From positions 1-57,749 of IMG/VR virus record IMGVR_UViG_3300006879_000004: 57,749 nt of DNA. One strand, 5' to 3'. Shown here in pieces: positions 947 through 51,650 of this stretch. The notes beneath the pieces are model-generated. The model did no database searches, was not told the DNA's origin, and was given only the letters and a program-made list of their open reading frames with translations. Position 1 is the first letter of the stretch; each line of letters begins with the position of its first letter. The stretch is from a virus. Lineage: Duplodnaviria > Caudoviricetes. The translations under genes and the position numbers were made by a program.

Positions 947-977
947 CAAACTTACTAGTTTTATTTTAAAGTTCCTA
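947..977 (-). promoter_or_regulatory. Phage-type promoter TAGGAA-N17-TAAGTTTG, ATG 4 nt downstream
   Basis: Minus strand reads TAGGAA ctttaaaataaaactag TAAGTTTG tagt ATG(942). Confidence 0.8.
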
Positions 978-978
978 A

Positions 979-1152
979 TTATTTATCACTTTCTCTCCTA
1001 ATTTTCTCTATTAACCACTCTAACTCATCTATCCTAATGTTAAGTGAGTATATCCTCATCTCGTTAAGTCGTTTAGTCAACTTTTTGGAAGTATCTTCAC
1101 TAATCTTAGATTTTAATTCGTTGAGCCTATCTTTAATTACTTTACTCTGCAT
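979..1152 (-). CDS. Hypothetical 57-aa helical protein
   Basis: MQSKVIKDRLNELKSKISEDTSKKLTKRLNEMRIYSLNIRIDELEWLIEKIRRESDK; fills the gap between neighbours; below the ORF-track cutoff. Confidence 0.65.
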   Translation of the reverse strand: MQSKVIKDRLNELKSKISEDTSKKLTKRLNEMRIYSLNIRIDELEWLIEKIRRESDK

Positions 1153-1600
1153 ATTGTTTTAACAGTTTTAAAGCCCAGTTGGCATAAGCAATAATCTTTT
1201 CAAAATCTTCCTTGTCTTGACCCTTCTCCCTCCAATTGTACTTGTCAATATTCCCTTTAGCGAAAGCTAGGCACTCTTCCGGAGTACAGTTAGCCTCCAT
1301 CCTAGCAAACGTATCAATCCCCTTAGAGTAATGGCTTGGTTTAGAGTCCACATTAAACGCCTCTTCTCTTCTTTCTTCGTAAATTCCAGATTCTTCATCA
1401 GCACTCATCATCTTCTCTAGTAACCTTTTCTGAGTCTGTTTTTCACTATCATCCCTCAAACCTAAGTGTTCAATAAACGTGCTGGGAGTCATGTAGTATG
1501 GTGAAGCATAAAGTAGTATTGGATCAAAACTCTCATAGGCTGTAAAAGATGTGTCTTGAGGATTAACCGCCTTGTTGGAGAAATAATGGACTTTTGACAT
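1142..1600 (-). CDS. DUF3310 / T7 gp1.7-like domain protein (possible nucleotide kinase)
   Basis: C-terminal KPSHYSKGIDTF...FAKGNIDKYNWR...EDFEKIIAY motif. May be N-terminally extended by a frameshift from 1638..1739. Confidence 0.75.
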   Translation of the reverse strand: MSKVHYFSNKAVNPQDTSFTAYESFDPILLYASPYYMTPSTFIEHLGLRDDSEKQTQKRLLEKMMSADEESGIYEERREEAFNVDSKPSHYSKGIDTFARMEANCTPEECLAFAKGNIDKYNWREKGQDKEDFEKIIAYANWALKLLKQYAE

Positions 1601-1637
1601 GTCTTTACGTTGACCCTCTCGCTTACCTTTGTAATTT

Positions 1638-1739
1638 TCAAAAAGTTTCTCTAGCTACTTGGGTTGCAACTTCTTTCAACTCTTCTTCTGATAGGTATTT
1701 CGATAGAACCTCCAAGTCTTTTAATTGTGTATTTTCCAT
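1638..1739 (-). CDS. 33-aa ORF ending in TTT-TGA; probable 5' part of the DUF3310 gene
   Basis: MENTQLKDLEVLSKYLSEEELKEVATQVARETF*; the +1 frame continues without a stop into 1142..1600. Confidence 0.6.
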   Translation of the reverse strand: MENTQLKDLEVLSKYLSEEELKEVATQVARETF

Positions 1740-1749
1740 AATGTCTATA

Positions 1750-1787
1750 AAAATAAAAACCGCTGAGGATTTATTTCCCCAACGGTT
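1750..1787 (-). terminator. Intrinsic terminator-like hairpin abutting a promoter
   Basis: Minus strand AACCGTTGGGGA-aataaa-TCCTCAGCGGTT (12 bp, two G-U pairs) followed by TTTATTTTT. Confidence 0.65.
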
Positions 1788-1818
1788 CAAATGTAATAAT
1801 AATATTTTAAGTTTCCTA
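1788..1818 (-). promoter_or_regulatory. Phage-type promoter TAGGAA-N17-TACATTTG
   Basis: Minus strand TAGGAA acttaaaatattattat TACATTTG. Confidence 0.8.
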
Positions 1819-1925: not shown

Positions 1926-2474
1926 TTAACTTTTAGCGTGTTTAGCTATAGTGTGTGCCAAGTCCTCCCATAGCCAAGCGTCCCACTTTGCTATCTTAGC
2001 CACATCCTCGGGGTTATTAATAAAACCTAACTCCACAATAGTAGCTGGTGATTTAGTGTTTAATATGCCTAACCTACCTCTAGCGGAATCTGACTCCCCT
2101 TTAACTCCTCTGCTACGCAACCCTGTGATAGAAACAATAGTGTCTAATATATCCTTAGCTAACTCTTTAGACTTTTGACTAGCGTTGTTAGATATAAGGG
2201 TTTCTACTCCTGTTGCTGTGTTAACCCCTGCGCTATTATAGTGAAGGTCTACAATTAAGGAATTACTACCTTCTGTTTCTTTAATCCACTTTATAACTTG
2301 AGAAAGGGTGTGTGAATCATCATCGTTAAGCACTATCATATCTGGATAATGCTTTTTTAAGAAGTAGGTAATGCCTTTCTTAGCTTCTATTGTTAGGTCT
2401 GCCTCCTTTAGACCCCCGGAAACAGCTCCGGGGTCTTTTCTATGGTGTCCTGCGATTATATATACTTGTCTCAT
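1926..2474 (-). CDS. Endolysin, N-acetylmuramoyl-L-alanine amidase (Amidase_3)
   Basis: IIAGH..DPGA, E(ADL), DLHYNS, GVET and VELGFINN zinc-amidase motifs. Confidence 0.92.
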   Translation of the reverse strand: MRQVYIIAGHHRKDPGAVSGGLKEADLTIEAKKGITYFLKKHYPDMIVLNDDDSHTLSQVIKWIKETEGSNSLIVDLHYNSAGVNTATGVETLISNNASQKSKELAKDILDTIVSITGLRSRGVKGESDSARGRLGILNTKSPATIVELGFINNPEDVAKIAKWDAWLWEDLAHTIAKHAKS

Positions 2475-6588: not shown

Positions 6589-6596
6589 CAAAGATA
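6589..6596 (-). promoter_or_regulatory. -7 box TATCTTTG upstream of the endonuclease gene
   Basis: Matches TAnnTTTG in the intergenic gap just downstream of a terminator. Confidence 0.6.
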
Positions 6597-6628
6597 GTTA
6601 TTTTAAGGTAAAGTTTTGTTAAGGGGTC

Positions 6629-9177: not shown

Positions 9178-9185
9178 CAAATTTA
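9178..9185 (-). promoter_or_regulatory. Late-type -7 box TAAATTTG
   Basis: Intergenic, upstream of the lysis cluster; same octamer at 17941, 24709, 28388 and 33420. Confidence 0.7.
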
Positions 9186-9201
9186 GTTAAAATATTATGG
9201 A

Positions 9202-9522
9202 CTATTTCTTTGTGCTTTTTCCCCCACTTCCGTTACGTGCTCTATTTCTCTTCTGAGTCTCTAGGGTAGTTTTACCGTTCTTTTTGTGGCTCACATCTTT
9301 CTTATCCCCATTGCCATAAGTACCTCTTTTCCTATTTTCTTTATTAAGTTCTGCCCGGTACTTCTTTCTTTCTGGGGTTGCATGGTATGCCTTATCGTAA
9401 GCCTTCTTCTTGCGAATACTCTCTTTACTCATACCTCTAGCTTTATATGACGGGTGCTTACCAGCATTACTGTTTCTTTTAGATTTACCAGTCTTAGTTC
9501 CCGCTAACTTATTTCTTACCAT
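9202..9522 (-). CDS. Highly basic protein with a degenerate HNH-like motif
   Basis: K/R-rich 106 aa; GNGDKKDVSH...NRARN resembles short phage HNH-like proteins. Confidence 0.55.
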   Translation of the reverse strand: MVRNKLAGTKTGKSKRNSNAGKHPSYKARGMSKESIRKKKAYDKAYHATPERKKYRAELNKENRKRGTYGNGDKKDVSHKKNGKTTLETQKRNRARNGSGGKSTKK

Positions 9523-9535: not shown

Positions 9536-9563
9536 AAGAAGGGGGGTTGGTTACTCCCCCTTA
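9536..9563 (-). terminator. Terminator-like hairpin at the end of the 2069-aa gene
   Basis: Minus strand AAGGGGG-agtaaccaac-CCCCCTT followed by CTTAAAT. Confidence 0.5.
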
Positions 9564-12500
9564 TCTGATTTCATAGATTTTATTAATAACTCTCCTTCTC
9601 TCGTACTTTTACTAACTTCTTTGTAGATCTCTCTAGTTATAGTCTCTCTAACGTGAGGGTTCTTTTCGTAAAACTCTTTTATAGTCTTAAACCGAGCTGT
9701 TTTAATAATAGAATCTTCCCTTTCTGACTTTAAAGGTATTGCTCCTAATTGCCCTCTGTAGTACGCTACGTTATTTAAGTACTCGGCTTTCAACTTACCT
9801 AATTCCTCAGGAGTGGGTGTGTAGGTAGCCCCCAATTCAGTGATCTCGCTAAAGTTAGAAACCTCTCTCATGATTTTCTTGAGCTGAGTCTCTGATTTAC
9901 CCTTACCGTACACCTCATTTAATGTTCTTTTCGTAGAAGCTCTAATACCTCTTGAGAATGAGTTGAAAACTTGGTCGGATAGACCCAACATAGATACTGC
10001 TGACAACGTAAGTGCTAAGAACTCTGATTGTTCCGCAAGGAAAGGCTTACCGTATTCTAACAATCCCTCTTCTGTTAAGTCAAAGTCATTTAACACGATG
10101 TCATCCCCTTCTGCTGTTGCAAACCCTCTTCTGGCTTTAATGAAATCTTCTTGAGTTTCTAATACCGCACCTAAGTCTACCCCTACATTGGCCAAAGCCC
10201 CGAGTCCCATCCCAAAGATGCCTGTAAGTCCGGCTACTTGGTCCACAGCCCCAGCAACTCCTCCTCTTGAGAATCCAGCCATAGGTTTCCAATCTACGCT
10301 GTCTAAGTAATCTTTACCTAGAGTTTTCTCGTAAGCAACTCCTGCTAGGAATCCTCCTAATTCTGAACCAGCATCTCCAAACAATATACCCCTAGATAAC
10401 AAGTCGTTAATTAGGTAACCACCTGAGTTTAATAGACTTCTTTGAATAGCGTTATTAGCTTGAATCTGGTATTCTTCACTACCTTCCTTAAGCTTCATAA
10501 TACGCTCTTTTTTGAACTCATCTTCCTCATCATCTTCCATCCAAGCTAGAATAGCATCGTAAGCTACTTTACCGATATAGGCTTGAGCAGTTAATCCCCC
10601 AACACGTATTGCGGTAGATATAGCTTGGAAAAGTCCTGCGTTGGCGTAGTTAGCTACAACTTCTTTAGCGTAATACCTAGCCTTATCCATATCCCCCTGC
10701 TTAGCGTAATACATCATCCTATCTACTGACAGTATTAGTGAATTTACTGTGTTCATAGAGAACGACATCATCGGAGCAATTGACTTTAAGAATGTGCTCT
10801 TAGAGTAATTACCTTGCATAGCTTTATCCGAAGAGTTCATAATAATCTCATTCTGGTTCTCTGCATATGCGTAAGCTACATCGTTAACACTGTCTAAATC
10901 AAGTGGTTGACCACCTTCCGTAGCCTTGTCAATATACATTGACAGCCATCCAATAGTAGCGTAATCTAAATCGGAATTTTGTAGTTCTTTAAGGGATATG
11001 CCTGATAACTTTTCAGTTAACTTTGAAAATCCCTCTACTCCTTTTATTGTACCACTAGCTAATAATCCGTACTCTCGCTCACTCACCCCTCTGGATTCTG
11101 ATCTTAAACCCAAGTGGGTGTCTGTAATATCCCTCAACGCTAATGTTGATTCTTCCACTAAAGTTTTAACTCTCGGGTCTTTGCTTATGATCAATTTCAT
11201 TGCGGTAGTGAAAGACTTCTTGTTTTTAAGCCTAGCGAAAGTCTCTACTAAAGGTGTTGTTTGCTTAAGTCTTTGCGCTCCCATAAGTGACCCCAATGAT
11301 GCTGAAGCACCTACGTTACGGATAGACTGAACTAATTGCATACCTAACCTATGACTTAAAGGAACATCTGCGTTAAGAGTAGGTAGCCTTAAATTAAACT
11401 CGTCGTTCTGTAACTTATCTGCAACTACCACCCGGTAATGCTCCATAGCACCAATGTGACTGTCCGTACCTTGAAGAGCATCCCCTAAACCGTTCTTTCT
11501 AAAGTCTGTGGTTTCGTTAACAATCCATCTATCCAATGTGGTCTCAGTATCGTAGATCATCTGACCAGCATCCTCTAAGAACGTATCTAACATTTGAAAG
11601 TTAAATATCTGTCCTACAGGCAACCTATCACCTAATAGAGTTCTGTCATTTCCAGCACCAGAGGCCTCACCTGTAATCGATCTTCTTCCTCTGCCCGGGG
11701 CTTCTCTAAGGTCTACTGTATTTGAAGCGTTTGAGGCTGTCGCTGATCCTGCTTTATTGTTGTAAGTAGTGTAGCTTAGTGGATAATAGTTTACCCAATC
11801 TTTTTCCAACACTTTATTATCAGACGCTTCACGGATAGAGAAAAAGTCCTCTTTGTTAGCGTCAAACGTTTCTCTAGTAAAGTTGTAGTATTCTTTGTAA
11901 CTAGCAGGTAGTTGATTAAACAATTCTTCACTAGTAACTAAAGGAATAGCTTCTGTTATACGACCTGTCTCTGGGTCCCTTATTACTCTAACTAAGGCGT
12001 TAGGGTTAGTATCTGGAGACGAATCTTCCTGTATAAATCCCTTTAACCTCTCCGCCAAAGGGGCGTTCACCTTTCTGTTGTAAGAAGAGGGGTCGTTTAC
12101 TAATCTATCGTAACTCTCCGCAATTGCCTTCCAACGACCTACGTAATTCTCTTGAATTTGCTCAGGTGTCCAAGACTCTCTGTACTGTGAAGTGATGATG
12201 TGCATTGACATTTTAATTTTGTCATTTACGTCACTCCACTTTCCTTTATGCTTGGTGGCAATTTTTTCAGACCTTTTAGTAATGTCTTTTACTTTATTAA
12301 TTGCTCTCGAGGCCGACCTAGTGTAATCTAAGAAACCTGTAACAGTATTCAATCTACCAGCAGTATCCGAATCCTTAACTAAAGCCTCTATTTTAATACG
12401 ACCTTGTGCTCCAAAAACAGGCATGTTAAGATACGTCCACATAGCTTGACCAACATCTCTAAAAGATGTGGCTAGGAAGTTCGTATTCTTCTGTAGTTTA

Positions 12501-35689: not shown

Positions 35690-35734
35690 GTCTTTTCTTA
35701 TATTATTTTGTCACATTATTATTACACTTATAAT

Positions 35735-35953: not shown

Positions 35954-35958
35954 AAAAG

Positions 35959-37187: not shown

Positions 37188-37191
37188 TAAC

Positions 37192-37458: not shown

Positions 37459-37539
37459 GTAAATAAGTTAAAAGATTTTTAGTAACTTAGCAATCCGTTT
37501 CAAAAAGTAAAAGTTAATTTGATTTAATATATTTTCACT

Positions 37540-38277: not shown

Positions 38278-38278
38278 T

Positions 38279-38470
38279 ATGTCAAGGTCATTAAAAAGAG
38301 AAGTCTACAAAGACAAGCCTATTGCGGAGTACAACAAGAGGTTCAGGAGGATAAACAAGATTAGGCTATCAATGGGTAAAGATCCTTTAAATACCCCGGA
38401 GATAACAAATGATTACGATGTGTGTGATTGGAAATATTTAAAAGACGTAAATAACAAGATAAGTAAATGA
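38279..38470 (+). CDS. Small basic hypothetical protein
   Basis: 63 aa, MSRSLKR...NKRFRR...NDYDVCDWK; abuts the MTase stop. Confidence 0.65.
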   Translation: MSRSLKREVYKDKPIAEYNKRFRRINKIRLSMGKDPLNTPEITNDYDVCDWKYLKDVNNKISK

Positions 38471-38524
38471 GAAAATATAAAGGAGAAGTTAAATTTAATT
38501 AAATATGGAGGATAGCATTTATAT

Positions 38525-39517: not shown

Positions 39518-39526
39518 ATATAGAAG

Positions 39527-41227: not shown

Positions 41228-41231
41228 GTTT

Positions 41232-41886
41232 ATGTATGTAATATATCGAATATTTAATATGGTTTCGGGGCACCTCTACTTAGGGTGCTCCAAAGACTAT
41301 AAAAGAAGATTTAGGGAACATAGAAGAAAATTAAATAAAAGAACTCACGCTAATAGTAGGTTACAAAATTCTTGGAATAAGTATGGTGAAAAGGCTTTTA
41401 CTTTCGAGGTAATATATCAATTTGAATCTGAAAAAAGATATGTATAATAAAGAGATATTTTTAATATCTGTAACAGATAATTTACTAAACTTAGCCGAAG
41501 GAGGGTTAGGAGGGGATTATTCCAAGTTTTGGAGTGAAGAAAGAAAAAACAAACACAGAATAGAGGTGTCTAACCGTCTTAAGAAATACTATAAGACGAA
41601 TAGTACCCATAAACTAAATGCGTTCCTTAATAAAAATGAAGAGGAACTTGCTATTTTAAGGGAGAAATGGTCAGAGTGTAAAAAAGGTTTGAAAAATTGG
41701 AACGCTAAGTACCCGCAGAAAATACTTCAAATTAAAGATGGTGTTGTTATCAGAGAGTGGGATAATGTTTATCAAGTAAGGGATGAATTAGGCTACAGAA
41801 TCCTTTACATAATAAAGTGTGCAAAAAAGTACAAAGGTTTCTACACTCATAAAGGGTATAGTTGGCAATTTAAAAACGAGCTATAG
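41232..41886 (+). pseudogene. GIY-YIG homing endonuclease split by a +1 frameshift
   Basis: VIYRI...LYLG...RRFREH...HAN..LQNSWNKYG in 41232..41447; LNLAEGG and a NUMOD1-like tail (THKGYSWQF) in 41422..41886. Removing one A at 41431-41436 fuses them (FESEKDMYNKE). Confidence 0.85.
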
Positions 41887-41921
41887 TATATTGTAGCTGC
41901 GCAGATTAACATAAACAAAAT

Positions 41922-41946
41922 AAGGGGACCTTTTGAGTCCCCTTTT
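41922..41946. terminator. Bidirectional terminator between converging genes
   Basis: AAGGGGAC-cttttga-GTCCCCTTTT. Confidence 0.78.
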
Positions 41947-41967
41947 CACATTTAACGTCTGTTTGTA

Positions 41968-42351
41968 TTATAGATTCATTCCAAAATGTTTAGCTACCTT
42001 CTTAACCAGATCATCTATCTCTTCCTTAGGAGCACCATTAATTTGAGCTAAGTAAAGTTTAGCTTCCGGTTCCGATAACACCCAATGAATGTTAAAAGTT
42101 TGAAAGTCGTCGAAGTTAACTAAGACTGGCTTTGCGTGATAAAAAGGCAAACCCCAATTCCTACCCGACTCCCGGATTAAAGCATGTTTAGCTACACTCA
42201 AACTCTCCTTTCCTAACTCTATTAAGATGGCCCTAAGGGCAGACTTATCCCCCCTATTAAATAATTCCACACTTAGTTCTAATCTCTTACTGTCTAGCAA
42301 ATCATCAACTGTGATTCCTAGTGTTCTTCCTGATCTCTTAAACTTTTTCAT
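41968..42351 (-). CDS. Hypothetical protein, lone minus-strand gene
   Basis: 127-aa ORF with its own TAGGAA promoter and terminator. Confidence 0.75.
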   Translation of the reverse strand: MKKFKRSGRTLGITVDDLLDSKRLELSVELFNRGDKSALRAILIELGKESLSVAKHALIRESGRNWGLPFYHAKPVLVNFDDFQTFNIHWVLSEPEAKLYLAQINGAPKEEIDDLVKKVAKHFGMNL

Positions 42352-42387
42352 TTAACGCTTCGGCATAAATTGTTTTTAACTTAAAGC

Positions 42388-42418
42388 CGAAGTTAAGTCT
42401 TTTATACTAAATTTCCTA
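42388..42418 (-). promoter_or_regulatory. Phage-type promoter TAGGAA-N17-TAACTTCG
   Basis: Minus strand TAGGAA atttagtataaaagact TAACTTCG. Confidence 0.68.
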
Positions 42419-42464
42419 ATTAATATTGTAACAATGTTATTACAGCGTAAAGTGAAAGTTTTCC

Positions 42465-42495
42465 TAGGAAGTGTAAAAGTTATTTATTACATTTG
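42465..42495 (+). promoter_or_regulatory. Phage-type promoter TAGGAA-N17-TACATTTG, ATG 4 nt downstream
   Basis: TAGGAA gtgtaaaagttatttat TACATTTG tgac ATG(42500). Confidence 0.82.
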
Positions 42496-42499
42496 TGAC

Positions 42500-42958
42500 A
42501 TGGAAGAACAACTGACATTAGAACAAGCCATTATTAGAGTATTGGAGTTCAACAAAGGAGGTGGTCAAGATGTAACATATACCCCCAGATGGATTAAACG
42601 AGAGGATTTTAAAAAACAACTGGCTATCTTAAGGGAAGAAGTTAACGAAATTGACGAAGCGTTTGAGAAGAAAGATATGCCAGAAGTGTTGGATGGGTTA
42701 GCTGACACACTTTACGTACTGTTAGGGCTAGTCTCCAGATTAGGTTTAGTTGGGGAAATGGTAGGTGCTTTCAAAGAGGTGTGCGATTCTAACGACACTA
42801 AGATTTGGCATAACGGTATTAACGTAGCTGTGTTTAAAGAATCTGTAGACCCTGTAACGGGGGAGAAGTTCACCAAGATAGGTAAACCTGAGACTTTTGA
42901 ACCAGCCAGATTAGACATTAAGTACCCTTACCTTAAAACACTTAAAGAAGTAGATTAA
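42500..42958 (+). CDS. MazG-like / all-alpha NTP pyrophosphohydrolase
   Basis: LREEVNE...EVLDGLADTLYV...FKEVCDSNDTK...KIGKP; start reassigned to 42500 because of the promoter. Confidence 0.85.
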   Translation: MEEQLTLEQAIIRVLEFNKGGGQDVTYTPRWIKREDFKKQLAILREEVNEIDEAFEKKDMPEVLDGLADTLYVLLGLVSRLGLVGEMVGAFKEVCDSNDTKIWHNGINVAVFKESVDPVTGEKFTKIGKPETFEPARLDIKYPYLKTLKEVD

Positions 42959-42961
42959 CAC

Positions 42962-43210
42962 ATGCGGAGACAACTAACCAGATTTGAACGTAACAAGTTA
43001 ATGTCAATTATAGACAGAGTAAATCCAGTAGCGGAATTAGAAAAGATTGATGAGGATGGAAGCTACGTTTATACAGCTAAAGTAGAAAACATAGTAGTGG
43101 GATTCCTTATACCACAAAGACACACTCGAGTAGGTAGATTGAAGGAACCCCTGTTAGACAGAGAGTTAAGTAGAAATATTTCAGCACATTTAAGATTTAA
43201 AGATGAGTAA
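42962..43210 (+). CDS. Hypothetical protein
   Basis: 82 aa in a tightly packed operon. Confidence 0.7.
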   Translation: MRRQLTRFERNKLMSIIDRVNPVAELEKIDEDGSYVYTAKVENIVVGFLIPQRHTRVGRLKEPLLDRELSRNISAHLRFKDE

Positions 43211-43421
43211 GCGAGGAAAGAGACAATCAGTGAACAGAATGCTGAAGCGTGGTAACGCAGAGGCAAGAGTTAACTACATGACACAGAATGTAGAAATTTG
43301 GAGCCGTACTAAGCGCAGTAAAGAGTTTAAACAACTGCACAGTATTATACCAGCGAAAGAAGCTATTCAAGAAGTATTATCAGAAATGGAGGTCGATGAT
43401 GTCGGAACAGCAGGTTCATAA
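43203..43421 (+). CDS. Hypothetical protein
   Basis: 72 aa, overlapping neighbours. Confidence 0.65.
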   Translation: MSKRGKRQSVNRMLKRGNAEARVNYMTQNVEIWSRTKRSKEFKQLHSIIPAKEAIQEVLSEMEVDDVGTAGS

Positions 43422-43641
43422 AAGAGATCAATTGAAGTCTTGGGGATTTAAAATAACCCAAGATGGAGGAGAGTGTTATTACCAGAAGGTACTGGATTAT
43501 GATGACTATTTTAACTCTCCGTTCCTATACACCGAAAAGGTTAAAAGAAACGGCCACATGGTGTACCTATGGGGTAAAGAGGAGCCTTTAACGGAGAGTG
43601 AGATAGTAGAGTTATTAGATCAATATAAAAAGGAGGATTAA
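43396..43641 (+). CDS. Hypothetical protein
   Basis: 81 aa in the operon. Confidence 0.65.
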   Translation: MMSEQQVHKRDQLKSWGFKITQDGGECYYQKVLDYDDYFNSPFLYTEKVKRNGHMVYLWGKEEPLTESEIVELLDQYKKED

Positions 43642-43803
43642 ATGGATATTAGTATGTGCTGGAATGAGGAATGCCCCTCTAAGAATGAGTGCTACAGATT
43701 CACAGCAACTCCGGAACCGTTGTATCAAAGTTATGCGGATTTTGAACCTCTTGAAGGGGAGGATAAGTGTGAGTATTTTTGGGACAATACGGAGTATAAA
43801 TAG
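43642..43803 (+). CDS. Small Cys-rich protein (53 aa)
   Basis: MDISMCWNEECPSKNECYRFTATPEPLYQSYADFEPLEGEDKCEYFWDNTEYK; four Cys; starts directly after the previous stop. Confidence 0.75.
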   Translation: MDISMCWNEECPSKNECYRFTATPEPLYQSYADFEPLEGEDKCEYFWDNTEYK

Positions 43804-43829
43804 AGTAACAAATTTAAACATATACAATT

Positions 43830-44009
43830 TTGGAAAAGTATCATATTACAATTTATTTTAAGGAAGGTGGTAGTGCTGAGTATGTAGGTACAGGTAGGCC
43901 ATCTGCGAACTCTGAAGAAATCATGGTTAAATCTCCTGACGGGTCTGAAATAATCATAGACAGAGAATCAGTTAAACTGTTTATAGTAAAACCCTACGCA
44001 GAGGGGTAA
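43830..44009 (+). CDS. Hypothetical 59-aa protein (TTG start)
   Basis: MEKYHITIYFKEGGSAEYVGTGRPSANSEEIMVKSPDGSEIIIDRESVKLFIVKPYAEG; ends before a terminator. Confidence 0.6.
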   Translation: MEKYHITIYFKEGGSAEYVGTGRPSANSEEIMVKSPDGSEIIIDRESVKLFIVKPYAEG

Positions 44010-44037
44010 GTGTAAATCTGCACTATAATTTAGATTT

Positions 44038-44074
44038 GAACCCGACTGTCGTAAGATACTCGGGTTTTCTTTTT
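44038..44074 (+). terminator. Intrinsic terminator
   Basis: GAACCCGA-ctgtcgtaagatac-TCGGGTTT-TCTTTTT. Confidence 0.72.
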
Positions 44075-44084
44075 CAGATTTTCT

Positions 44085-44115
44085 TAGGAAGTTAGCAGTA
44101 TAATGCTTATATTTG
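44085..44115 (+). promoter_or_regulatory. Phage-type promoter TAGGAA-N17-TATATTTG, ATG 4 nt downstream
   Basis: TAGGAA gttagcagtataatgct TATATTTG tgac ATG(44120). Confidence 0.82.
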
Positions 44116-44119
44116 TGAC

Positions 44120-46024
44120 ATGAGCACTAAGAAAAAACCAAACGCATTTGTATTTGATATTGAAACTGATGGTCTCTACGATGAGGTAACCAAGATACAC
44201 TGCTTGTCTTACATAAGACTTGGGGATTCAGAAGTTAAGTCTATAACAGACATGGAGAGAATAAAACAATTCTTCTTACAAGATGACCTAACACTTCTCG
44301 GCCACAATATAGTCGTCTACGATATACCTACAGTCAAGAAGGTATTAGATTTTGACTTCACACCCAAGAGAACTGTAGATACTTTAGGTATAAGTTGGTA
44401 TTTAAACTCCAGCAAAGATGCGTCTTTTAAACACGGTTTAGAGTATTACGGAGAAAGGTTTGGAATACCTAAGCCTAAGATTGACGATTGGGAGAATCTG
44501 ACAGTGGAAGATTATGTTTTTCGTTGTCAGGAGGATGTCAAGATAAATTATAAATTGTGGTTAGACCAACAAGCTCAGTTAAAGTACTTATACGAAGATG
44601 ATTGGAGAGAGGTTTTTAGGCTTATAGATTACATTACTCTAAAACTAGATGTTGTAGCAGAACAACAGGAGAATAGGACTCTACTAGATACTAACTTAAT
44701 AAATTATGAAATAAACAGGTTAAGTGCTATAGCGAAAGAGAGTCGTGAAGAGTTATTATCAGCAATGCCTAAACAACCTATTAAGTCTAAGAAGAGTAAG
44801 CCCAAGAATGTCTACAAACAAGATGGGGAGTTGACCACATACGGAGCGAAGTGGTTTGAGTTCCTAAAAGAGCTTGGGTTGCCTGAAAGTACGGAAGGGG
44901 ATGTTACGTACATATCGGGATACGATGACCCTAACCCAGATTCTATGGTTCAAATAAAAGACTGGTTATTTAGTCTAGGTTGGGAACCGCAGCATTTTAA
45001 ATATATTAGAGACAAGAAAACAAACGAATTTAGAACTGTTCCCCAGATTACAAACGAGAGGGATGGTACAGAGCTTTGCGAGTCTGTATTAAAACTGTCT
45101 GAAAAAGTTCCTGAAATAAACGCACTTGCTGGGTACTCAACTGTTAAACATAGGATAAAACTTTTCGAGGGGTTTCTAAGAGACATGGATTCGGAGAATA
45201 GGTTACAGTGGGATGCTGGAGGTTTCACTAACACCTTTCGACTTAAGCATAGGAAGGTAGTAAACCTACCAAACCCTAAAGCACCTTTTGCAGAAAATAT
45301 TCGAGCTGTCTTTATAGCTGACACTGGGGAATATTTGGTTGGAAGTGATTTAAGTGGTATAGAAGATGCGACTAAACAACACTACATATTCCCCTTTGAC
45401 CCAGATTATGTTAAGTCTATGCAAACAGAGGATTGGGATGCTCACCTAGACGTTTGTATTAGGGCCGGACTACTATCTGAGGAGCAGGTTGAAGACCACA
45501 AGTCAGGTAAAGTTTTATATAAGGAAGAGAGGCAAAAGGGCAAGACAGTTAATTTTTCTGCGACATATAAAGTGGGAGCTAAGACTTTAGCCAGAACTAT
45601 GAAGGTTCCTGAATCAGAGGCTAAGAAGATACTAGACGCTTACTGGGAAAGAAACTGGGCCATTAAGTCCTTCGAAAAAACTTGTACGGTAAAGTCTATA
45701 GGAGATCAGATGTGGGTTAAGCAACCTATTTCAGGATTCTGGTACACCCTAAGAACACAGAAGGATATATTCTCAACAGTTAATCAGGGAACCGCTGTGT
45801 ACGTTTTTGATATATGGTGTAAGCACTTGAGGGAGTTAGGTATCAGATTATCAGGGACATACCACGATGAAGTCGTTCTGAGGGTCCCTTTCAAAGAGCG
45901 GAGTTTTCAAGAAACCAGAGATCTGATAGGTAAGTCTATGGAGTTGGTAAACGAAGAATTAAAGCTGAATGTGGAGGTTAAATGTTCAGTAGATTTTGGA
46001 AGAACGTATTTAGATGTTCATTAA
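44120..46024 (+). CDS. polA: Family A DNA polymerase with 3'-5' exonuclease
   Basis: FDIETDG, GHNIVVYD, RCQEDV (exonuclease); GSDLSGIE (motif A), RQKGKTVNFSATY (motif B, Phe at the 762-equivalent), YHDE (motif C). Confidence 0.95.
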   Translation: MSTKKKPNAFVFDIETDGLYDEVTKIHCLSYIRLGDSEVKSITDMERIKQFFLQDDLTLLGHNIVVYDIPTVKKVLDFDFTPKRTVDTLGISWYLNSSKDASFKHGLEYYGERFGIPKPKIDDWENLTVEDYVFRCQEDVKINYKLWLDQQAQLKYLYEDDWREVFRLIDYITLKLDVVAEQQENRTLLDTNLINYEINRLSAIAKESREELLSAMPKQPIKSKKSKPKNVYKQDGELTTYGAKWFEFLKELGLPESTEGDVTYISGYDDPNPDSMVQIKDWLFSLGWEPQHFKYIRDKKTNEFRTVPQITNERDGTELCESVLKLSEKVPEINALAGYSTVKHRIKLFEGFLRDMDSENRLQWDAGGFTNTFRLKHRKVVNLPNPKAPFAENIRAVFIADTGEYLVGSDLSGIEDATKQHYIFPFDPDYVKSMQTEDWDAHLDVCIRAGLLSEEQVEDHKSGKVLYKEERQKGKTVNFSATYKVGAKTLARTMKVPESEAKKILDAYWERNWAIKSFEKTCTVKSIGDQMWVKQPISGFWYTLRTQKDIFSTVNQGTAVYVFDIWCKHLRELGIRLSGTYHDEVVLRVPFKERSFQETRDLIGKSMELVNEELKLNVEVKCSVDFGRTYLDVH

Positions 46025-46036
46025 TATAAAACAAAT

Positions 46037-46222
46037 ATGGAAACTTTTAAAATGATACTAGGAGGGATAATTACAGTAGTTATCGTCGTAGGATTAGTAG
46101 TGCCAACCGTATTACACTACATCACCACACTTAAGGAATGTAGAGAACTTCGGAGGCAGATTGATCAAGAACGTAAAAGACGAGAAAACAATTTGAGAAA
46201 AAAGTTAGGAAGTAAAGATTAA
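46037..46222 (+). CDS. Small membrane protein
   Basis: 61 aa; one TM plus a basic coiled tail. Confidence 0.65.
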   Translation: METFKMILGGIITVVIVVGLVVPTVLHYITTLKECRELRRQIDQERKRRENNLRKKLGSKD

Positions 46223-46236
46223 TTTTAGTATAATTG
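46206..46236 (+). promoter_or_regulatory. Phage-type promoter TAGGAA-N17-TATAATTG, ATG 4 nt downstream
   Basis: TAGGAA gtaaagattaattttag TATAATTG tact ATG(46241). Confidence 0.72.
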
Positions 46237-46240
46237 TACT

Positions 46241-46507
46241 ATGAGAAACAAACGAACTCCTCGGAACAAATCTGTACAAGAAGAGTGGGGCTTAGAGCCA
46301 CCAGATGGGGAATACTTGGGAACTAAAGAAGAACGTAAGAAAGCTAAAGAGGCAGACAAGCGCAAGTCATTGAAAATCACAATGATAAAAAATAGACTTA
46401 GCGAGTTACACAGAAACAACATTGTAGAGAGTCCTGAAATAGATAGTCTTTTAGATGATTTGAGTAAGGAGTTGGAGTCGTTAAATTTTGGTTGGGGTTT
46501 AGAATAA
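46241..46507 (+). CDS. Hypothetical protein
   Basis: 88-aa ORF at a predicted transcription start. Confidence 0.7.
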   Translation: MRNKRTPRNKSVQEEWGLEPPDGEYLGTKEERKKAKEADKRKSLKITMIKNRLSELHRNNIVESPEIDSLLDDLSKELESLNFGWGLE

Positions 46508-46515
46508 AATAAAAT

Positions 46516-47166
46516 ATGAGAGTAGAGTTATTAGGAGTTTTTGGGGACGATAACATGGTAGTTGATGTAGCCAGAGTGTCCTATAATAAGAGTTCAGAAA
46601 ATTACACTGAGGAGCAAAACGAAAGGTTGGTGAAATTCTTAGCTAGGGAGGGACATTGGTCTCCAGCAAGCCACCCTCAACTTCAGTTTAGGTTGACTGT
46701 ACCTATTTACGTAGAACGTCAATTGGTTAAGTCAGAATCTGGAAGGGTTTATAACAGTATTAGTGGCAGATATGTGGATTTTAGCGACACATACACTAAG
46801 ATACCTTACGGGGGGTGGAGAAAGCAATCTAAGTCGAGTAAACAAGGTAGCGATGGTCTTCTAGATAAAGAGGGTCAAAGGTTGGCTAATAACATTCAGT
46901 CTAGTATAGAGCTATTAGCAAGGGATTCTTACAAGAAGTTAATAGATTTGGGTGTCAGTAAGGAGCAAGCCAGAACCGTACTCCCTCTGAACCTAAACAC
47001 AACTATGATTTGGACAGGTTCTCTATACACCTTGATACGACTATGCAATCAAAGAATCAAAGATGATGCGCAAAGAGAAACTAGGGTTGTGGTGGAGAAG
47101 ATGTTAGAGGAAGTTAAGAAAACGGGAAGATTCAATAAAACTTTAAAAGCCTACGGTTATGAGTAA
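46516..47166 (+). CDS. thyX: Flavin-dependent thymidylate synthase
   Basis: VVDVARVSY, GHWSP, PIYVERQLVK, SGRY, GVSKEQARTVLP, AQRETR. Confidence 0.9.
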   Translation: MRVELLGVFGDDNMVVDVARVSYNKSSENYTEEQNERLVKFLAREGHWSPASHPQLQFRLTVPIYVERQLVKSESGRVYNSISGRYVDFSDTYTKIPYGGWRKQSKSSKQGSDGLLDKEGQRLANNIQSSIELLARDSYKKLIDLGVSKEQARTVLPLNLNTTMIWTGSLYTLIRLCNQRIKDDAQRETRVVVEKMLEEVKKTGRFNKTLKAYGYE

Positions 47167-47374
47167 ATATACGTTTACAATAGAGACAGATGACCTAGAT
47201 GAGTTCCAATCAATAGTCAAACATTCTGATTATCAGGCACTTGTGTTTCATTTAAAAAGCAATTTTCATAGAAATTTCTCGAATTTACCAGAGGATTTAG
47301 AGGGTAAGTCTTTTTATGAAGGAATTGAACATGTTCTTGATAAGTTATATGAAACGTTAGATCAATTTGATTAA
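47159..47374 (+). CDS. Hypothetical protein
   Basis: 71 aa, overlapping the thyX stop. Confidence 0.65.
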   Translation: MSKYTFTIETDDLDEFQSIVKHSDYQALVFHLKSNFHRNFSNLPEDLEGKSFYEGIEHVLDKLYETLDQFD

Positions 47375-47375
47375 T

Positions 47376-48292
47376 ATGTCTAGGAAGAAAACAACAGAGG
47401 AATTTATAAAAGATGCTGAAAATACTCACGGGGACAAATTCGATTACTCGAAAGTAAATTATGTGGACGCTAGAACCAAAGTATGTATCATCTGCCCTAA
47501 ACATGGGGCTTTATTACGAACCCTAATAATCATTTGATGGGGCAGGGTTGTCCTAAGTGCGCAGGCAGGGGAAAAACAACAGAGAGTATTATTAAAGAAT
47601 TTAAAATTATACATGGTGATAAATACGACTACTCTAATACAGAGTATATACCCCATGAAAGAAAATTAAGTATCATCTGTCCAGAACACGGCGAGTTCTG
47701 GCAATCATACACAAAACACGTGTCAGGTTCTGGGTGTCAAGTATGCGGAGAGATTATTAGAAAGAAAAGTGTGACTAACAACAAACTGTCTAAGAAATTT
47801 AAAGACTTAATCCAACCCGAAGAATACAAACTAATTCCTCTAACACAGGGGCAGTTTGCTAAGGTGGACAACGAAGACTTCGATAGGTTGAAAGGTATTA
47901 ATTGGTGTGCAGGCCCGCTAGGATACGTTGTTAATAAAAAATTTGGAAGGATGCATAGATATATTATGGATTGTCCAGAAGAAATGGTGGTTGATCACAT
48001 TAACCACGACACCTTAGATAACAGAAAAAATAATTTAAGAATTGCAACACATCGTCAGAATAATTTTAATAGAAGACCTAGTCATGAAAGTAGTAGTCAA
48101 TATAAAGGAGTTTCTTGGAACAACGAAGCTATTAAGTGGTCTGCTAGTATAAGGTTGAATGGGGAACAGATTCATTTAGGATTATTTAAAAATGAAAAAG
48201 AAGCCGCGGAAGCTTATGATAAAAAGGCATTGGAATTATTCGGAGAATTTGCTTACCTAAACTTTCCAGAATTTAAACGAACACCTATATGA
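47376..48292 (+). pseudogene. HNH-AP2 homing endonuclease with two N-terminal zinc repeats, frameshifted
   Basis: 47376..47537 encodes MSRKKTTEEFI...HGDKFDYS...IICPKHG. The natural continuation FITNPNNHLMGQGCPKC is in the frame of 47534..48292, which has a second repeat, VDHINHDTLDNRKNNLR (HNH) and YKGV...HLGLF...AAEAYD (AP2). Confidence 0.85.
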
Positions 48293-48558
48293 AAATTAAC
48301 ATAAAAGTAGGTAACAAAGAACTACGAACAACAGAAAGTACTAAAGGACAGCCTTACATAGAGGTAGTGCAGTGGGACACGGAAGAGGAAAGTTGTATTA
48401 CGTTGATGTACTGGCTAAATGATTATGAAGAAATAACAATGAAGACAGTTGAAAACAGGGTTTTAGATTACATGACACCGGATGAGTTCTTTTTCTTTCA
48501 CAAAATAGGTAATAAAATTATAGAAGGTTTACGAGAATGGAGACAGAATCAGCAGTAA
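48289..48558 (+). CDS. Hypothetical protein
   Basis: 89 aa, ATGA overlap. Confidence 0.7.
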   Translation: MKINIKVGNKELRTTESTKGQPYIEVVQWDTEEESCITLMYWLNDYEEITMKTVENRVLDYMTPDEFFFFHKIGNKIIEGLREWRQNQQ

Positions 48559-48890
48559 GGCCCCTCGAGTTGGAGGTTAAAACAAACGGACACAATTATA
48601 AGTTGTACATGGTGCAAGATAACGTGTACATTTACAGACAGTTAGATAAGAATGACGGATCTACAGTAGGGTTTGAGGCTTTCATTGCCCAGACCAGACC
48701 TGCTGAAACCATACAGTCGAAAGAGTACCCTCAGAGGCATGTCTATCCCACGGAAAGGGATTGGGGTCACAGAGCTTGGACCCTACGAGCCTCTAGCACC
48801 AAAGAGGAATTACTAGATAAGTTTAAGGAAATGCTTAAAATAGCTGAACTAAGGGATAAAAGTAAAATAGAAAAAGATGTTAACGTTTAA
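48537..48890 (+). CDS. Hypothetical protein
   Basis: 117 aa; YIYRQ...FEAF...YP.ERDWG.RAWT. Confidence 0.7.
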   Translation: METESAVRPLELEVKTNGHNYKLYMVQDNVYIYRQLDKNDGSTVGFEAFIAQTRPAETIQSKEYPQRHVYPTERDWGHRAWTLRASSTKEELLDKFKEMLKIAELRDKSKIEKDVNV

Positions 48891-49083
48891 TACACATACC
48901 GAAAAAGTTGTAAAAGAAGTTTTGTTCAATAAGGGGTACATCTCGTTTGAGGACTTTAAAAGAAGATTGGGAGACGGAGACACTACGGCACTATTCGAAT
49001 TAGAGTCCGTTCTTCATCAATCAATGGTTGAATATTCTAAGGGAGTGGAGAGATACTACGAAGGAGTTAACGAAACAGATTAA
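48877..49083 (+). CDS. Hypothetical protein
   Basis: 68 aa in the operon. Confidence 0.65.
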   Translation: MLTFNTHTEKVVKEVLFNKGYISFEDFKRRLGDGDTTALFELESVLHQSMVEYSKGVERYYEGVNETD

Positions 49084-49086
49084 GCT

Positions 49087-49518
49087 ATGAAAGACGAAGA
49101 AAACGAACACGAAGAGGGGCTAACCCCAGTTTACAAAATCCCTAGATTACACGCAGACTTCTGCCGAATGGTTTGCACAGACAGGGAAGATGAAGATTTA
49201 GCACACGCTGAGTTGTACTTAGATAGTATTTACAAGATAATCCACGAGAGGGTAGAAGAGTTGGCGGATAGTGAAGATGATTTTGAAGATTCGGAGATGT
49301 GTGTTTCTTTTGAGCTAACAGATGCTAAGTTAGAGATAAAGCAAATAGTCTTGGGTAGATTAATGGATAGTGGATTTGACTGTTTCACGGCAGTAGATAC
49401 TGAGGAGGAGGCGGAATACCTGAGAGACTTAGAAAGTTTGAGCGAGTATGACGATGCGGTAAGAGAAGCTATGGAAGATTATCAAGAGAGTGCTAACAAA
49501 TTTATAATTTACTGGTAA
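49087..49518 (+). CDS. Highly acidic hypothetical protein
   Basis: 143 aa, very D/E-rich. Confidence 0.7.
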   Translation: MKDEENEHEEGLTPVYKIPRLHADFCRMVCTDREDEDLAHAELYLDSIYKIIHERVEELADSEDDFEDSEMCVSFELTDAKLEIKQIVLGRLMDSGFDCFTAVDTEEEAEYLRDLESLSEYDDAVREAMEDYQESANKFIIYW

Positions 49519-49611
49519 TCCCCAGAGGTACCCATTTCAGGCACAATAATTAAAAGTGGGGTACATGGTTACAAATAAAAAGATAATTCAAAATACATAT
49601 ACACCTATATA

Positions 49612-50922
49612 GTGAAAACAACAGAAAAGAGGATGTTAACCATCTTGGTCCCTACCACCAAAGATCGTTACGACAATTTTAATCAAGCTATCCAGAAGCA
49701 ACTGTATGATCAATACGACAGCTTACCTAGAGAAGATAGAGAAAAGGTAGAAATAGTTATTTACGTAGACAACCGGGTTGTAAAGATTGGGGAGAAGCGT
49801 AATTTAGCTCTCGGGTTGTCCCACGGGGTGTACACGGCTTTTGTAGATTCTGATGATAGATTGGCACCCACTTACCTAAAGGACCTTCTATATGCAACTA
49901 AGTTTGGAGCTGACGTTATTACTTTTAGGAGTGAAGTATCTTTAGACGGTAGTGAACCTAAGTTGTGTTTGTTCTCCAACGCTTTAGATTCCGATAGGGA
50001 CTCAGAGGATTGTTATTACAGATTACCTAACCACCTATGTGCTGTAAAAACTTACTTAGCTAAAGAAGCTGGGTTTCCTAGTAACAAGCAGATGGGGGAA
50101 GATGCCGAATACTCTAAGCGGTTAAAGGGTCTTTTAAGGGACGAGCACCACATTGGTAAAGTACTTTACTACTATGACTACAGCACTATTACTACTGAGA
50201 CTCAGATGAATACAAAGGCTCCTGACTTAGATGTAGTTATCCTAAGTGACGCTACTAGAGGGGATGAATTTAAGACAATGACTCAAACCACTATTGATAC
50301 AGCTATTAAAGGGGCTAAGGGGCACCGACTAAACTTTATTGTAATTGAGACATGTCCTAACACTAAGTACTACGATGCGCAGACAATCACCCCTATTGAC
50401 GCTGAGTTCCATTACAACAAACGCATGAACTTCGGGGCAAGCTTAGGGAAGTCTCCCCGCATCTTGTTCTGTAACAACGACTTAGAATTTACTAGTAACT
50501 GGTTAAAACCTCTTTTAGATGCCAATCACAGTTTCGTAAGCCCGTGGGAACCAGACGACATTCGTCAAAAAGGAATTAAAAGGAATACAGTAGGTACAGT
50601 TACTGGAAGACACATGAGCGGATGGTGTTTTATGATGACTAGGGAGCTGTGGAAAAAGATTGGAGGTTTAGATGAGGACTTCTCTTTCTGGCACGCAGAC
50701 TGTTCTGTTATTCAGCAAACGTTAGCTGAGGGGGTTTATCCTATGATTGTGAAAGATTCTGTAGTTAGGCACTTAGGATCTCAAACGTTCAATACCCTAG
50801 ACTCTGACAAGAAGAACGACTACACGTGGGCAGAGACATACAAGTTTAACAAAAAGTATAATCAAGATAAGTTTAAAGACAACGAGTGGTTTCAATTATG
50901 GAAAGAAACGAACAACCAGTAA
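49612..50922 (+). CDS. Glycosyltransferase with two GT-A (GT2-like) domains
   Basis: Domain 1: LTILVPT, IGEKRN, FVDSDD. Domain 2: DVVILS, YNKRMNFGA, FCNNDL, GWCFMM, IGGLDEDF, VRHLGSQT. Confidence 0.88.
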   Translation: MKTTEKRMLTILVPTTKDRYDNFNQAIQKQLYDQYDSLPREDREKVEIVIYVDNRVVKIGEKRNLALGLSHGVYTAFVDSDDRLAPTYLKDLLYATKFGADVITFRSEVSLDGSEPKLCLFSNALDSDRDSEDCYYRLPNHLCAVKTYLAKEAGFPSNKQMGEDAEYSKRLKGLLRDEHHIGKVLYYYDYSTITTETQMNTKAPDLDVVILSDATRGDEFKTMTQTTIDTAIKGAKGHRLNFIVIETCPNTKYYDAQTITPIDAEFHYNKRMNFGASLGKSPRILFCNNDLEFTSNWLKPLLDANHSFVSPWEPDDIRQKGIKRNTVGTVTGRHMSGWCFMMTRELWKKIGGLDEDFSFWHADCSVIQQTLAEGVYPMIVKDSVVRHLGSQTFNTLDSDKKNDYTWAETYKFNKKYNQDKFKDNEWFQLWKETNNQ

Positions 50923-51638
50923 ATATAGGTATTGGAATCACTACTAAGAACAGACACGATATTTTAAACAAGTCTGTAGCTGGGTGGAAGAACTATTATC
51001 CTGAAGCCCAGTTAGTTATAGTAGATGACGGATCTGATGAACCTGTTAAGGACGCTAATTTTAGGTTTGACGAGTCTCAGGGAATCTCTAAAGCTAAGAA
51101 CGTTTGTATAGATTTGTTAATAGATAAGGGGTGTACAGACATATTTTTAGTAGATGACGATATTAGACCTATAGATTCAGAGGGGTTGTATAAATACGTT
51201 AACTCTCCTTACAACCATTTACAACTAACCTTTCAGAGGGGGTATAACGGTGTAAAGCTCACTGACGAGATGAACATAAACTATACTAAAGATGGATACG
51301 ACTTTAACGATTATTCATGTGGTATATTACTTTACTTTAAGAGTTTGGTCTTTGATGAAGTTAGTGGGTTTAGAGAAGAGTTTAGTAAATACAGCATGGA
51401 GCATATAGACCTATCATTACAAGTCTACCAATCTGGGCTAACCCCTCACCCGTTTATTGACATTCACAAATCTTTACAGCACTTTTTTTCTTACGACTAC
51501 TTTGGACTCACAGAGAGTTCTGTTAACGAACAAGAGAGGAGAAGATTGGCTAAATCGAATAAAGAACTATTGATAAACTTGTGGAAAGACAATACTGATG
51601 AAAAAATATCAAAATTAATTATGAAGCTTAGTAAATAA
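50886..51638 (+). CDS. GT2-like glycosyltransferase
   Basis: IGITTKNR, VIVDDGSD, GISKAKN, FLVDDD, EHIDLS; likely start is ATG 50898. Confidence 0.88.
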   Translation: MVSIMERNEQPVNIGIGITTKNRHDILNKSVAGWKNYYPEAQLVIVDDGSDEPVKDANFRFDESQGISKAKNVCIDLLIDKGCTDIFLVDDDIRPIDSEGLYKYVNSPYNHLQLTFQRGYNGVKLTDEMNINYTKDGYDFNDYSCGILLYFKSLVFDEVSGFREEFSKYSMEHIDLSLQVYQSGLTPHPFIDIHKSLQHFFSYDYFGLTESSVNEQERRRLAKSNKELLINLWKDNTDEKISKLIMKLSK

Positions 51639-51650
51639 TTTGTACTATTG
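51620..51650 (+). promoter_or_regulatory. Degenerate phage-type promoter TATGAA-N17-TACTATTG
   Basis: Same 17-nt spacing, one mismatch in each box. Confidence 0.45.

Follow-up and report, generated by a model that had tools for sequence, protein, structure and literature searches.

A probable TAGGAA-N17-TAnnTTTG promoter class in front of the non-structural operons of a Bacteroidota phage

The linear IMG/VR virus record IMGVR_UViG_3300006879_000004 (57,749 bases, 38% G+C, completeness estimate 76%, so that about one quarter of the phage genome lies outside it) is referred to hereafter as the window. It carries ten copies, one of them degenerate, of the pattern TAGGAA-N17-TAnnTTTG, in which the -7 box of Bacteroidota promoters is accompanied at a fixed distance by an upstream hexamer. 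The ten sites are very probably real promoters for the host sigma-A RNA polymerase and form the class that serves the non-structural operons. We further propose that TAGGAA is read by a phage-encoded DNA-binding factor; the promoter class and its phage-encoded reader, taken jointly, fall somewhat short of an even chance. We infer this joint reading from the strong enrichment of the pattern, the complete split between gene classes, the invariance of a box that departs from the host TTG, its rarity in host-type genomes and its restriction to one phage lineage. A second upstream element is present on the late genes, which indicates that the phage uses such elements to keep its gene classes apart.

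Enrichment and placement of the TAGGAA sites

The exact pattern TAGGAA-N17-TAnnTTTG was found five times in the window (947-977(-), 1788-1818(-), 35659-35689(-), 42465-42495(+) and 44085-44115(+)) against an expectation of 0.01, and none of 100 dinucleotide shuffles reached five. When one mismatch was allowed there were ten matches against 0.78 expected, a number that was likewise reached by none of 100 shuffles. Nine of these ten are the nine copies listed in a preliminary description of this DNA, all of which were confirmed in position and strand; the tenth (40281-40311(+)) lies inside the gene for the large subunit of ribonucleotide reductase (RNR). A position matrix made from the nine sites gave 51620-51650(+) a score of 25.2 bits, compared to maxima of 6.2-19.1 bits in 20 shuffles, and thereby recovered the degenerate copy that had also been proposed. 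No further site in the window scored above 12 bits, and the in-gene match at 40281 was thus rejected. In leave-one-out tests eight of the nine sites scored 21.0-26.4 bits. The score of 42388-42418(-) was only 8.6 bits because its -7 box is TAACTTCG, which makes it the weakest member of the class, included chiefly for where it lies. When hexamers enriched in intergenic DNA were sought without supervision, A+T content dominated the outcome and TAGGAA did not stand out.

The sites and the genes that they are predicted to drive are as follows (aa, amino acids; ORF, open reading frame; HTH, helix-turn-helix).

947-977 (-): ATG at 942; drives a 90-aa ORF (670-942) and the DnaB-like helicase gene (2-673, off the window)
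1788-1818 (-): upstream of the DUF3310 gene (1142-1600) and a 57-aa ORF; just downstream of the amidase gene
35659-35689 (-): drives tRNA-Arg(TCT) (35557-35631), three unknown ORFs and the Cpn10 gene (33450-33764)
35735-35765 (+): -7 box TACTTTAG; drives the BT4734-like/winged-HTH replication gene (35959-37179)
37157-37187 (+): TAGGAT variant, within the preceding gene's 3' end; ATG at 37192; operon of an 88-aa ORF, a Dam-type methyltransferase and the RNR small and large subunits
42388-42418 (-): upstream of the 127-aa ORF P0002 (41968-42351)
42465-42495 (+): ATG at 42500; drives the MazG-like pyrophosphohydrolase gene and small ORFs
44085-44115 (+): ATG at 44120; drives the family-A DNA polymerase gene
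46206-46236 (+): -7 box TATAATTG; ATG at 46241; drives an 88-aa ORF, ThyX, the HNH-AP2 gene and others
51620-51650 (+): degenerate, TATGAA-N17-TACTATTG; upstream of small ORFs and the triple-HTH gene

The spacer is 17 nucleotides (nt) long in all ten sites, as the preliminary description had it for the nine clear copies. When the sites are aligned, the spacer is A+T-rich and unconserved, and what is kept is the hexamer, the base before it, a GT directly 3' of it and the -7 box. GGA is present in 9/9 sites, GT in five of the nine, and the preceding base is T in six (giving TTAGGAA) and C in three. The -7 element matches TAnnTTTG exactly in six of the ten sites (the five full-pattern copies and 37157) and with one mismatch in the other four; the view that promoter-like sites have kept a host-type -7 box is supported. 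Site 46206, like 37157, falls inside a coding 3' end. The protein of the ORF downstream of the weakest site, P0002, had neither a family nor a protein-atlas match. Two pairs of sites are divergent: at 35684-35740 (35659(-) and 35735(+)) the boxes stand back to back 45 nt apart, and at 42413-42470 (42388(-) and 42465(+)) they are 46 nt apart. The second pair includes TTCCTAGGAA (42461-42470), a perfect 10-nt palindrome.

Placement argues for promoter function. TAnnTTTG boxes are concentrated between genes (25 of the 65 in the window lie in 4.5 kb of intergenic DNA), and each TAGGAA site points towards the start of a gene or, in the case of 35659, towards a tRNA gene. All ten face replication, nucleotide-metabolism, tRNA, chaperonin or unknown genes, in keeping with the original claim that the sites lie upstream of non-virion genes, and under the present annotation it also holds that no copy directly precedes a virion gene. 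Structural operons are preceded instead by six late promoters:

6589-6627 (-): ACC-N28-TATCTTTG; behind a terminator-like hairpin
9178-9216 (-): TAAATTTG, with AGC instead of ACC
17941-17979 (-): ACC-N28-TAAATTTG
24709-24747 (-): ACC-N28-TAAATTTG
28388-28426 (-): ACC-N28-TAAATTTG
33420-33458 (-): ACC-N28-TAAATTTG; before a 134-aa ORF, the large terminase and the portal

Five of the late boxes are thus TAAATTTG and one is TATCTTTG. They have an A+T-rich spacer with neither TTG nor TAGGAA at -33, and in five of six an upstream ACC is separated from the box by exactly 28 nt and falls at about -43 to -41; the sixth has AGC. ACC-N28-TAnnTTTG occurs six times in the window (the five late promoters and that of an XRE-like gene, 55062-55100(-)) against 1.03 expected, a figure that is flattering because the pattern was picked after the alignment had been seen. 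The split between the classes is complete, with 10/10 TAGGAA sites before non-structural and 6/6 late sites before structural operons.

Ten more TAnnTTTG boxes, on both strands and without TAGGAA, lie in a mostly non-coding region of 1.9 kb (54169-56111). They are a putative third, early promoter set made up of -7 boxes that lack either upstream element. Two of them stand out:

55883-55890 (+): -7 box before a pistol ribozyme and the small ORFs from 56112
55062-55069 (-): -7 box, predicted leaderless promoter of the XRE-like gene, with ATG 4 nt after the box

The pistol ribozyme (56010-56077(+); Rfam RF02679, 44.3 bits compared to a gathering score of 34.5) is located downstream of the box at 55883-55890 and directly upstream of the first small ORF (56112), and it may free the mRNA of this ORF cluster from its leader. 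A repeat search over 54.1-56.2 kb found nothing regular. The region 54169-56111 resembles the middle part of Cellulophaga phage phi38:1, where small ORFs and tRNA genes lie.

The distance from the -7 box to the gene also distinguishes the classes. For Flavobacterium johnsoniae the accessible part of the published promoter analysis places the -7 element from T-12 to G-5, with probable promoters starting 4-5 nt after it (PMC6847099). At five of the nine sites (947, 37157, 42465, 44085 and 46206) the ATG comes 4 nt after TTTG, that is, its A is the fifth base after the G. This spacing, combined with a start 4-5 nt after G-5, would make the A of the ATG position +1, and it implies that the messages of five TAGGAA promoters are leaderless. 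In late promoters the box and the ATG are separated by 21-46 nt, and among the F. johnsoniae transcripts that have a probable promoter 87% carry a leader longer than 10 nt, according to the same part of that study (PMC6847099). Leaderless messages for the replication class and leadered messages for the late class would be a possible added layer of control, at translation.

Comparison of the box with host promoters and other phages

The interpretation in the preliminary description was supported in part. Its view that the upstream element of the host has been replaced is an overstatement: the hexamer is no normal host feature, as set out below, but its place is that of the host element. With F. 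johnsoniae numbering TAGGAA spans -35 to -30 (centre -32.5). Among 160 promoter-like TAnnTTTG sites taken from 800 kb of two Flavobacteriaceae genomes, TTG was found at offsets -23, -22 and -21 from TA in 10, 10 and 7 sites respectively, compared to 1-5 at other offsets, and the same peak was seen in 373 sites from 46 Bacteroidota loci. The TAG of TAGGAA lies at offset -23, the position of the host -33 TTG, and therefore the box occupies the host -33 position and no new place.

In sequence the host consensus TTG/TTTG is unmatched, since TAG is present in 9/9 sites and TTAG in 6/9. Only about one in six host-type sites has TTG at -33, and the -33 motif is described as barely evident in F. johnsoniae, as far as the accessible part of the source goes (PMC6847099). 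TAG at that offset is unenriched in host-type sites (5/160) and is not followed by GGAA. The phage box is kept far more strictly than the host element, with A for the central T in 9/9 sites and a fixed spacer.

Genomes of the host type contain few copies of the motif. Five Flavobacteriaceae genomes (20.7 Mb) contained 12 exact matches compared to five for the reversed control, a density of 0.6 per Mb compared to 87 per Mb in the window. More generally, TAG at the offset of the box was counted 251 times, below the 357 of its control, and TTG 588 times, slightly above its 507. When spacers of 12-22 nt were allowed, N17 accounted for 12 of 111 matches (counted from coordinates), which is no excess. 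A wider set of 151 Bacteroidota genomes yielded 66 matches, distributed over 51 genomes with at most four in each, while the reversed control gave about 184 (summed by hand). TAGGAA-N17 is thus not common among host promoters; the preliminary description had named such commonness as fatal to its proposal.

Seven cultured or complete related phages (489 kb) contained no TAGGAA-N17-TAnnTTTG and only three TTGGAA versions, the motif was present in none of 80 PolA-related IMG/VR loci (973 kb), and phi38:1, the closest cultured relative by portal protein, had no site of the class in its first 50 kb. Rarity in the 151 genomes and absence from the seven relatives indicate that the motif is specific to this phage lineage. 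An IMG/VR scan for the motif followed by ATG returned mostly single chance matches, together with three kinds of contig that carry arrays:

L195, 2773-12603: 13 copies, nine TTTGGAAA and four TTAGGAAA, alternating in one array
L135, 1967-8685: nine copies of TAGGA(T/A)
L180/L175: three copies

The array promoters conform to T(T/A)GGA(A/T)-N17-TAnnTTTG, and each stands before a small co-oriented ORF with an A-rich tract upstream; their spacers are also conserved. The L195 and L135 contigs are 8-15% complete by estimate and probably belong to large phages. Among the array contigs tested, no proteins in common with the window were detected. Since these contigs were found with a TAGGAA query, they are no proof that the box is general.

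Contigs from four DNA runs, compared over 35000-52000, contained relatives at about 90-97% identity. Among the variants listed, three are of interest, none of them decisive: a relative from two metagenomes has G>A at 35690, which turns cTAGGAA into tTAGGAA on the minus strand; a relative skips 22 nt at 35634-35657 and leaves the -7 box untouched; and one relative has 43998-44106, including the TAGGAA of the PolA promoter, exchanged for 95 letters.

Candidate readers and rival explanations

Two proteins of the window are candidates for a regulator of these promoters.

52272-52916 (+): triple-HTH protein P0001, 214 aa; candidate reader
54875-55057 (-): XRE/Cro-like HTH protein, 60 aa (phrog_3, E 8.6e-4); candidate regulator

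P0001 is built from three HTH motifs in tandem, about 40 aa long (LuxR/GerE, sigma-70 region 4 type), a basic linker and a C-terminal domain. It is the sole ORF with a region-4-like HTH in Pfam scans and has no region 2, and its own operon carries the degenerate box at 51620-51650. Pfam and PHROG scans point to a further DNA-binding candidate in the C-terminal winged HTH of the replication protein. No result ties P0001, the XRE-like protein or the winged HTH to TAGGAA.

Host sigma-A polymerase very probably uses the near-consensus TAnnTTTG as its -7 box, with a predicted start 4-5 nt downstream. If a phage factor reads the box, the following course of events can be envisaged. TAGGAA at -35 to -30 would serve as a class label, read by the phage factor at the position of sigma region 4. 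The factor would replace or remodel the region 4 contact and switch on the class once expression of the first genes had taken place. Its own gene would be transcribed from a promoter without TAGGAA, either at 54.2-57.7 kb or in the quarter of the genome that the window lacks, and the bare -7 promoters could express the reader first. A more elaborate form of this proposal is that a new, non-MotA factor binds TAGGAA where sigma region 4 would otherwise sit and redirects host sigma-A polymerase, as a case of convergent sigma appropriation, and that a second factor reads ACC at about -42, giving three classes (bare -7, TAGGAA plus -7, ACC plus -7) of which the middle one is mostly leaderless; we consider this form possible, well below probable.

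The principal alternative is that host sigma-A acts alone. TTAGGAA would then be a phage-preferred extended -33 element read by sigma region 4, the TAGGAA sites would be strong early promoters without a phage factor, and the late genes would be the class that needs a phage activator, through the ACC element. We consider this possible, well below probable, and most of the observations that weigh against a phage-encoded reader are points in its favor. Position and spacing of the box are those of the host TTG; a single base separates TTAG from the host TTTG; the T that completes TTAGGAA is present in six of nine sites and is gained at 35690 by the relative from two metagenomes. In L195 TTTGGAAA and TTAGGAAA are exchanged within one array, and this TTTG/TTAG exchange, which is independent of the query bias, indicates that one reader can accept both. 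Six of the 12 Flavobacteriaceae matches are three TTAGGAA-N17-TAnnTTTG pairs that are conserved between two genera while their intergenic surroundings have diverged. They precede a leucyl-tRNA-synthetase-like, a membrane-transporter-like and a small conserved gene (translations read by eye), and from their conservation it follows that uninfected cells very probably use them. The -7 boxes of the window are near-perfect and have A-rich tracts upstream, as in strong unaided promoters; a phage that has no polymerase of its own needs such promoters, and all visible promoters of the replication module are of the TAGGAA type. Nor was a factor gene recognized. A six-frame search of the window for Sigma70_r2 (PF04542) gave nothing at E<=1, in agreement with the preliminary description, which had recognized no sigma gene, and the same search was positive in 11 of 14 control genomes; MotA (PF09114), in six frames of the window and hence in 76% of the genome, and AsiA (PF09010), in six frames of the window, were equally without a match at E<=1. 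Other phages with similar boxes carry no P0001 homologue, the early status of the boxes without TAGGAA is putative, and the host-side comparisons cover Flavobacteriaceae and Bacteroidota genomes at large.

Several findings speak against sigma-A as the only reader. The central T of TTG is A in 9/9 copies and TTG is present in none, and GGAA has no counterpart in host-type promoters. The motif is depleted in the 151 Bacteroidota genomes and shows no spacing preference in the five Flavobacteriaceae, and its absence from seven related Flavobacteriia phages would be unexpected for an optimum of the polymerase that their hosts share. Part of the likeness of the other box-bearing phages, moreover, is owed to the TAGGAA-based search. 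The remaining explanations are less probable. TAGGAA might be a shut-off operator, with a -7 box that fires unaided until a repressor covers the sigma region 4 position and stops the non-structural class as late transcription starts. This would suit one asymmetric hexamer that overlaps a polymerase contact at a fixed place in every promoter of the class, as well as the presence of HTH proteins (one XRE-like and of repressor type, the other the triple-HTH protein with a degenerate box on its own operon), and host promoters are described in the accessible part of the F. johnsoniae study as working with little or no -33 element, so that an activator is not strictly required (PMC6847099). Nevertheless, the site is non-palindromic save by chance at 42461-42470, there is no sign of shut-off and no protein is tied to the site, and we regard an operator as unlikely. 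A divergent phage sigma factor with a host-like region 2 and a region 4 that reads TAGGAA could replace sigma-A for the class. Such a factor would account for one reader of both boxes at a fixed spacing, and its gene could be in the missing quarter of the genome; yet the window has no Sigma70_r2 match where 11/14 control genomes do, the only region-4-like HTH is in P0001, which is without region 2, and the late and putative early classes share the same -7 box, all of which makes such a factor very unlikely. Least probable, and hardly to be credited, is that the hexamer has no specific function and is simply common to copies of one ancestral promoter. Copy-like promoter arrays with conserved spacers do exist in other phages (L195), whereas here spacers and flanks drift while TAGGAA and the -7 box stay, and two copies lie inside coding 3' ends (37157 and 46206).

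Gene map of the window and relation to known systems

The gene map on which the class assignments are based is given below.

1926-35531 (-): structural and lysis block, read from 35531 down to 1926, which includes a 1259-aa virion protein and tail-fibre-like proteins
30879-32966 (-): large terminase
28426-30873 (-): portal
9551-15760 (-): 2069-aa orphan ORF in the virion module
1926-2474 (-): amidase, which ends the late block
below 1818 (-): replication genes again, namely DUF3310 and the DnaB-like helicase running off the window end
35959-54168 (+): BT4734-like/winged-HTH replication protein, Dam-type methyltransferase, RNR small and large subunits, MazG-like pyrophosphohydrolase, family-A DNA polymerase, ThyX, HNH-AP2 endonuclease, two glycosyltransferases, triple-HTH protein and SLOG/YAcAr protein
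54169-56111: nearly without ORFs
56112 to the end: small ORFs of no known function

Among cultured phages the large terminase and portal match only phages of Flavobacteriia, at less than 30% identity; the 87 matching records are from phages of Flavobacterium (68), Cellulophaga (15), Tenacibaculum (2) and Maribacter (1), with one unclassified. Megablast of the window against cultured phages gave no DNA-level match, and the only near relatives at the DNA level were contigs from public metagenomes of soil, compost, poultry gut, dust and food; relatives of about 78 kb occur in those of compost, poultry gut, dust and food. No RNA run was listed as containing the phage. The likeness of terminase and portal to those of Flavobacteriia phages, along with relatives in metagenomes only, indicates that the host is a member of the Bacteroidota, probably a strain of Flavobacteriia or Sphingobacteriia type from soil or compost. 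RNR similarity in 401 Bacteroidota genomes singled out no host, identity being about 35% everywhere, and a large-terminase search of viral and genome contigs found no relative. PolA relatives in IMG/VR reach at most 44% identity.

The 2069-aa orphan had no Pfam, PHROG or PDB sequence match, and the protein atlas returned unnamed clusters together with one viral LPD38 (large polyvalent protein domain) cluster at rank 23. It may be an ejected internal protein; the idea that it is a hidden virion RNA polymerase is unsupported by these searches. Behind the RNR large-subunit gene, a segment with two small ORFs (41209-41894; ORFs 41232-41447 and 41422-41886) is missing from relatives in two metagenome runs, where a 4-letter filler is found at the joint, and the segment is probably a mobile insertion. 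The two glycosyltransferases and the SLOG/YAcAr protein (49612-51638 and 53815-54168) are in the same region as ThyX and the Dam-type methyltransferase, and one of the glycosyltransferases has a weak match to the TET-associated glycosyltransferase family. Together these genes hint at DNA base modification.

Very little is known on the timing of transcription in Bacteroidota phages. A literature search, with subscription journals and supplements outside its scope, found no description of class-specific upstream elements for promoters of these phages, and a 2026 study of a Bacteroides fragilis phage, in its accessible part, predicts promoters by the host -7/-33 rule only (PMC13139388). The window offers a clean in silico case of temporal promoter classes in a little-studied phage group: with a single polymerase and a single -7 box, two or three upstream codes keep the gene classes fully apart. 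If a phage factor reads TAGGAA, it would represent a new takeover of the unusual Bacteroidota sigma factor and an orthogonal switch for engineering. If host sigma-A reads it, the promoters would bring to light an extended -33 contact that is not apparent from those of the host.

T4 middle promoters, which depend on MotA and AsiA, are similar in form, with a host-type downstream element that is kept and a distinct box near -30 to -35, where sigma region 4 would bind, and they are alike in that they serve replication and nucleotide-metabolism genes in a phage without its own polymerase, as far as the accessible parts of the sources show (PMC6755090, PMC2988021). The window has no MotA or AsiA homologue, its box is one base from the host -33 element and not unrelated to it, and the host sigma here, being of the Bacteroidota type, uses a -7 box. 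Bacteroidota sigma-A (sigma-ABfr) promoters, -33 TTTG/-7 TAnnTTTG, have the same -7 box and the same upstream position and spacing, going by the accessible part of the F. johnsoniae study (PMC6847099). The phage class departs from them by TAG for TTG in 9/9 sites, an invariant GGA(A), a fixed spacer and promoters of which more than half are predicted to be leaderless. Promoters in the L195, L135 and L180/L175 arrays are similar, but their spacers are conserved, as expected of copies by descent, and L195 has mostly the host-like TTTG.

Early promoters of T4 and the promoters of T5 have their own extended consensus, which is read by the unmodified host polymerase. They resemble the TAGGAA class in a phage-wide consensus that is tighter than that of the host and slightly different from it, in A-rich upstream DNA and in serving the first large gene class; for the T4 and T5 classes as such, see PMC6024815 and PMC7472727. 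Those promoters keep the core contact of a TTG-type -35 element, whereas here the central T is always changed. Sites for the Mor and C activators of phage Mu are dyad-symmetric and centred further upstream than TAGGAA; the window yielded no homologue of these activators, although no search was aimed at one. Promoters that depend on Mor/C-type activators are alike in having a good downstream element and no usable upstream one, and in being switched on by a small phage HTH protein, as the accessible part of a recent preprint describes them (10.1101/2025.05.02.651988). It is the late ACC element, at about -42, that best fits the position of a Mor/C-type or class II activator.

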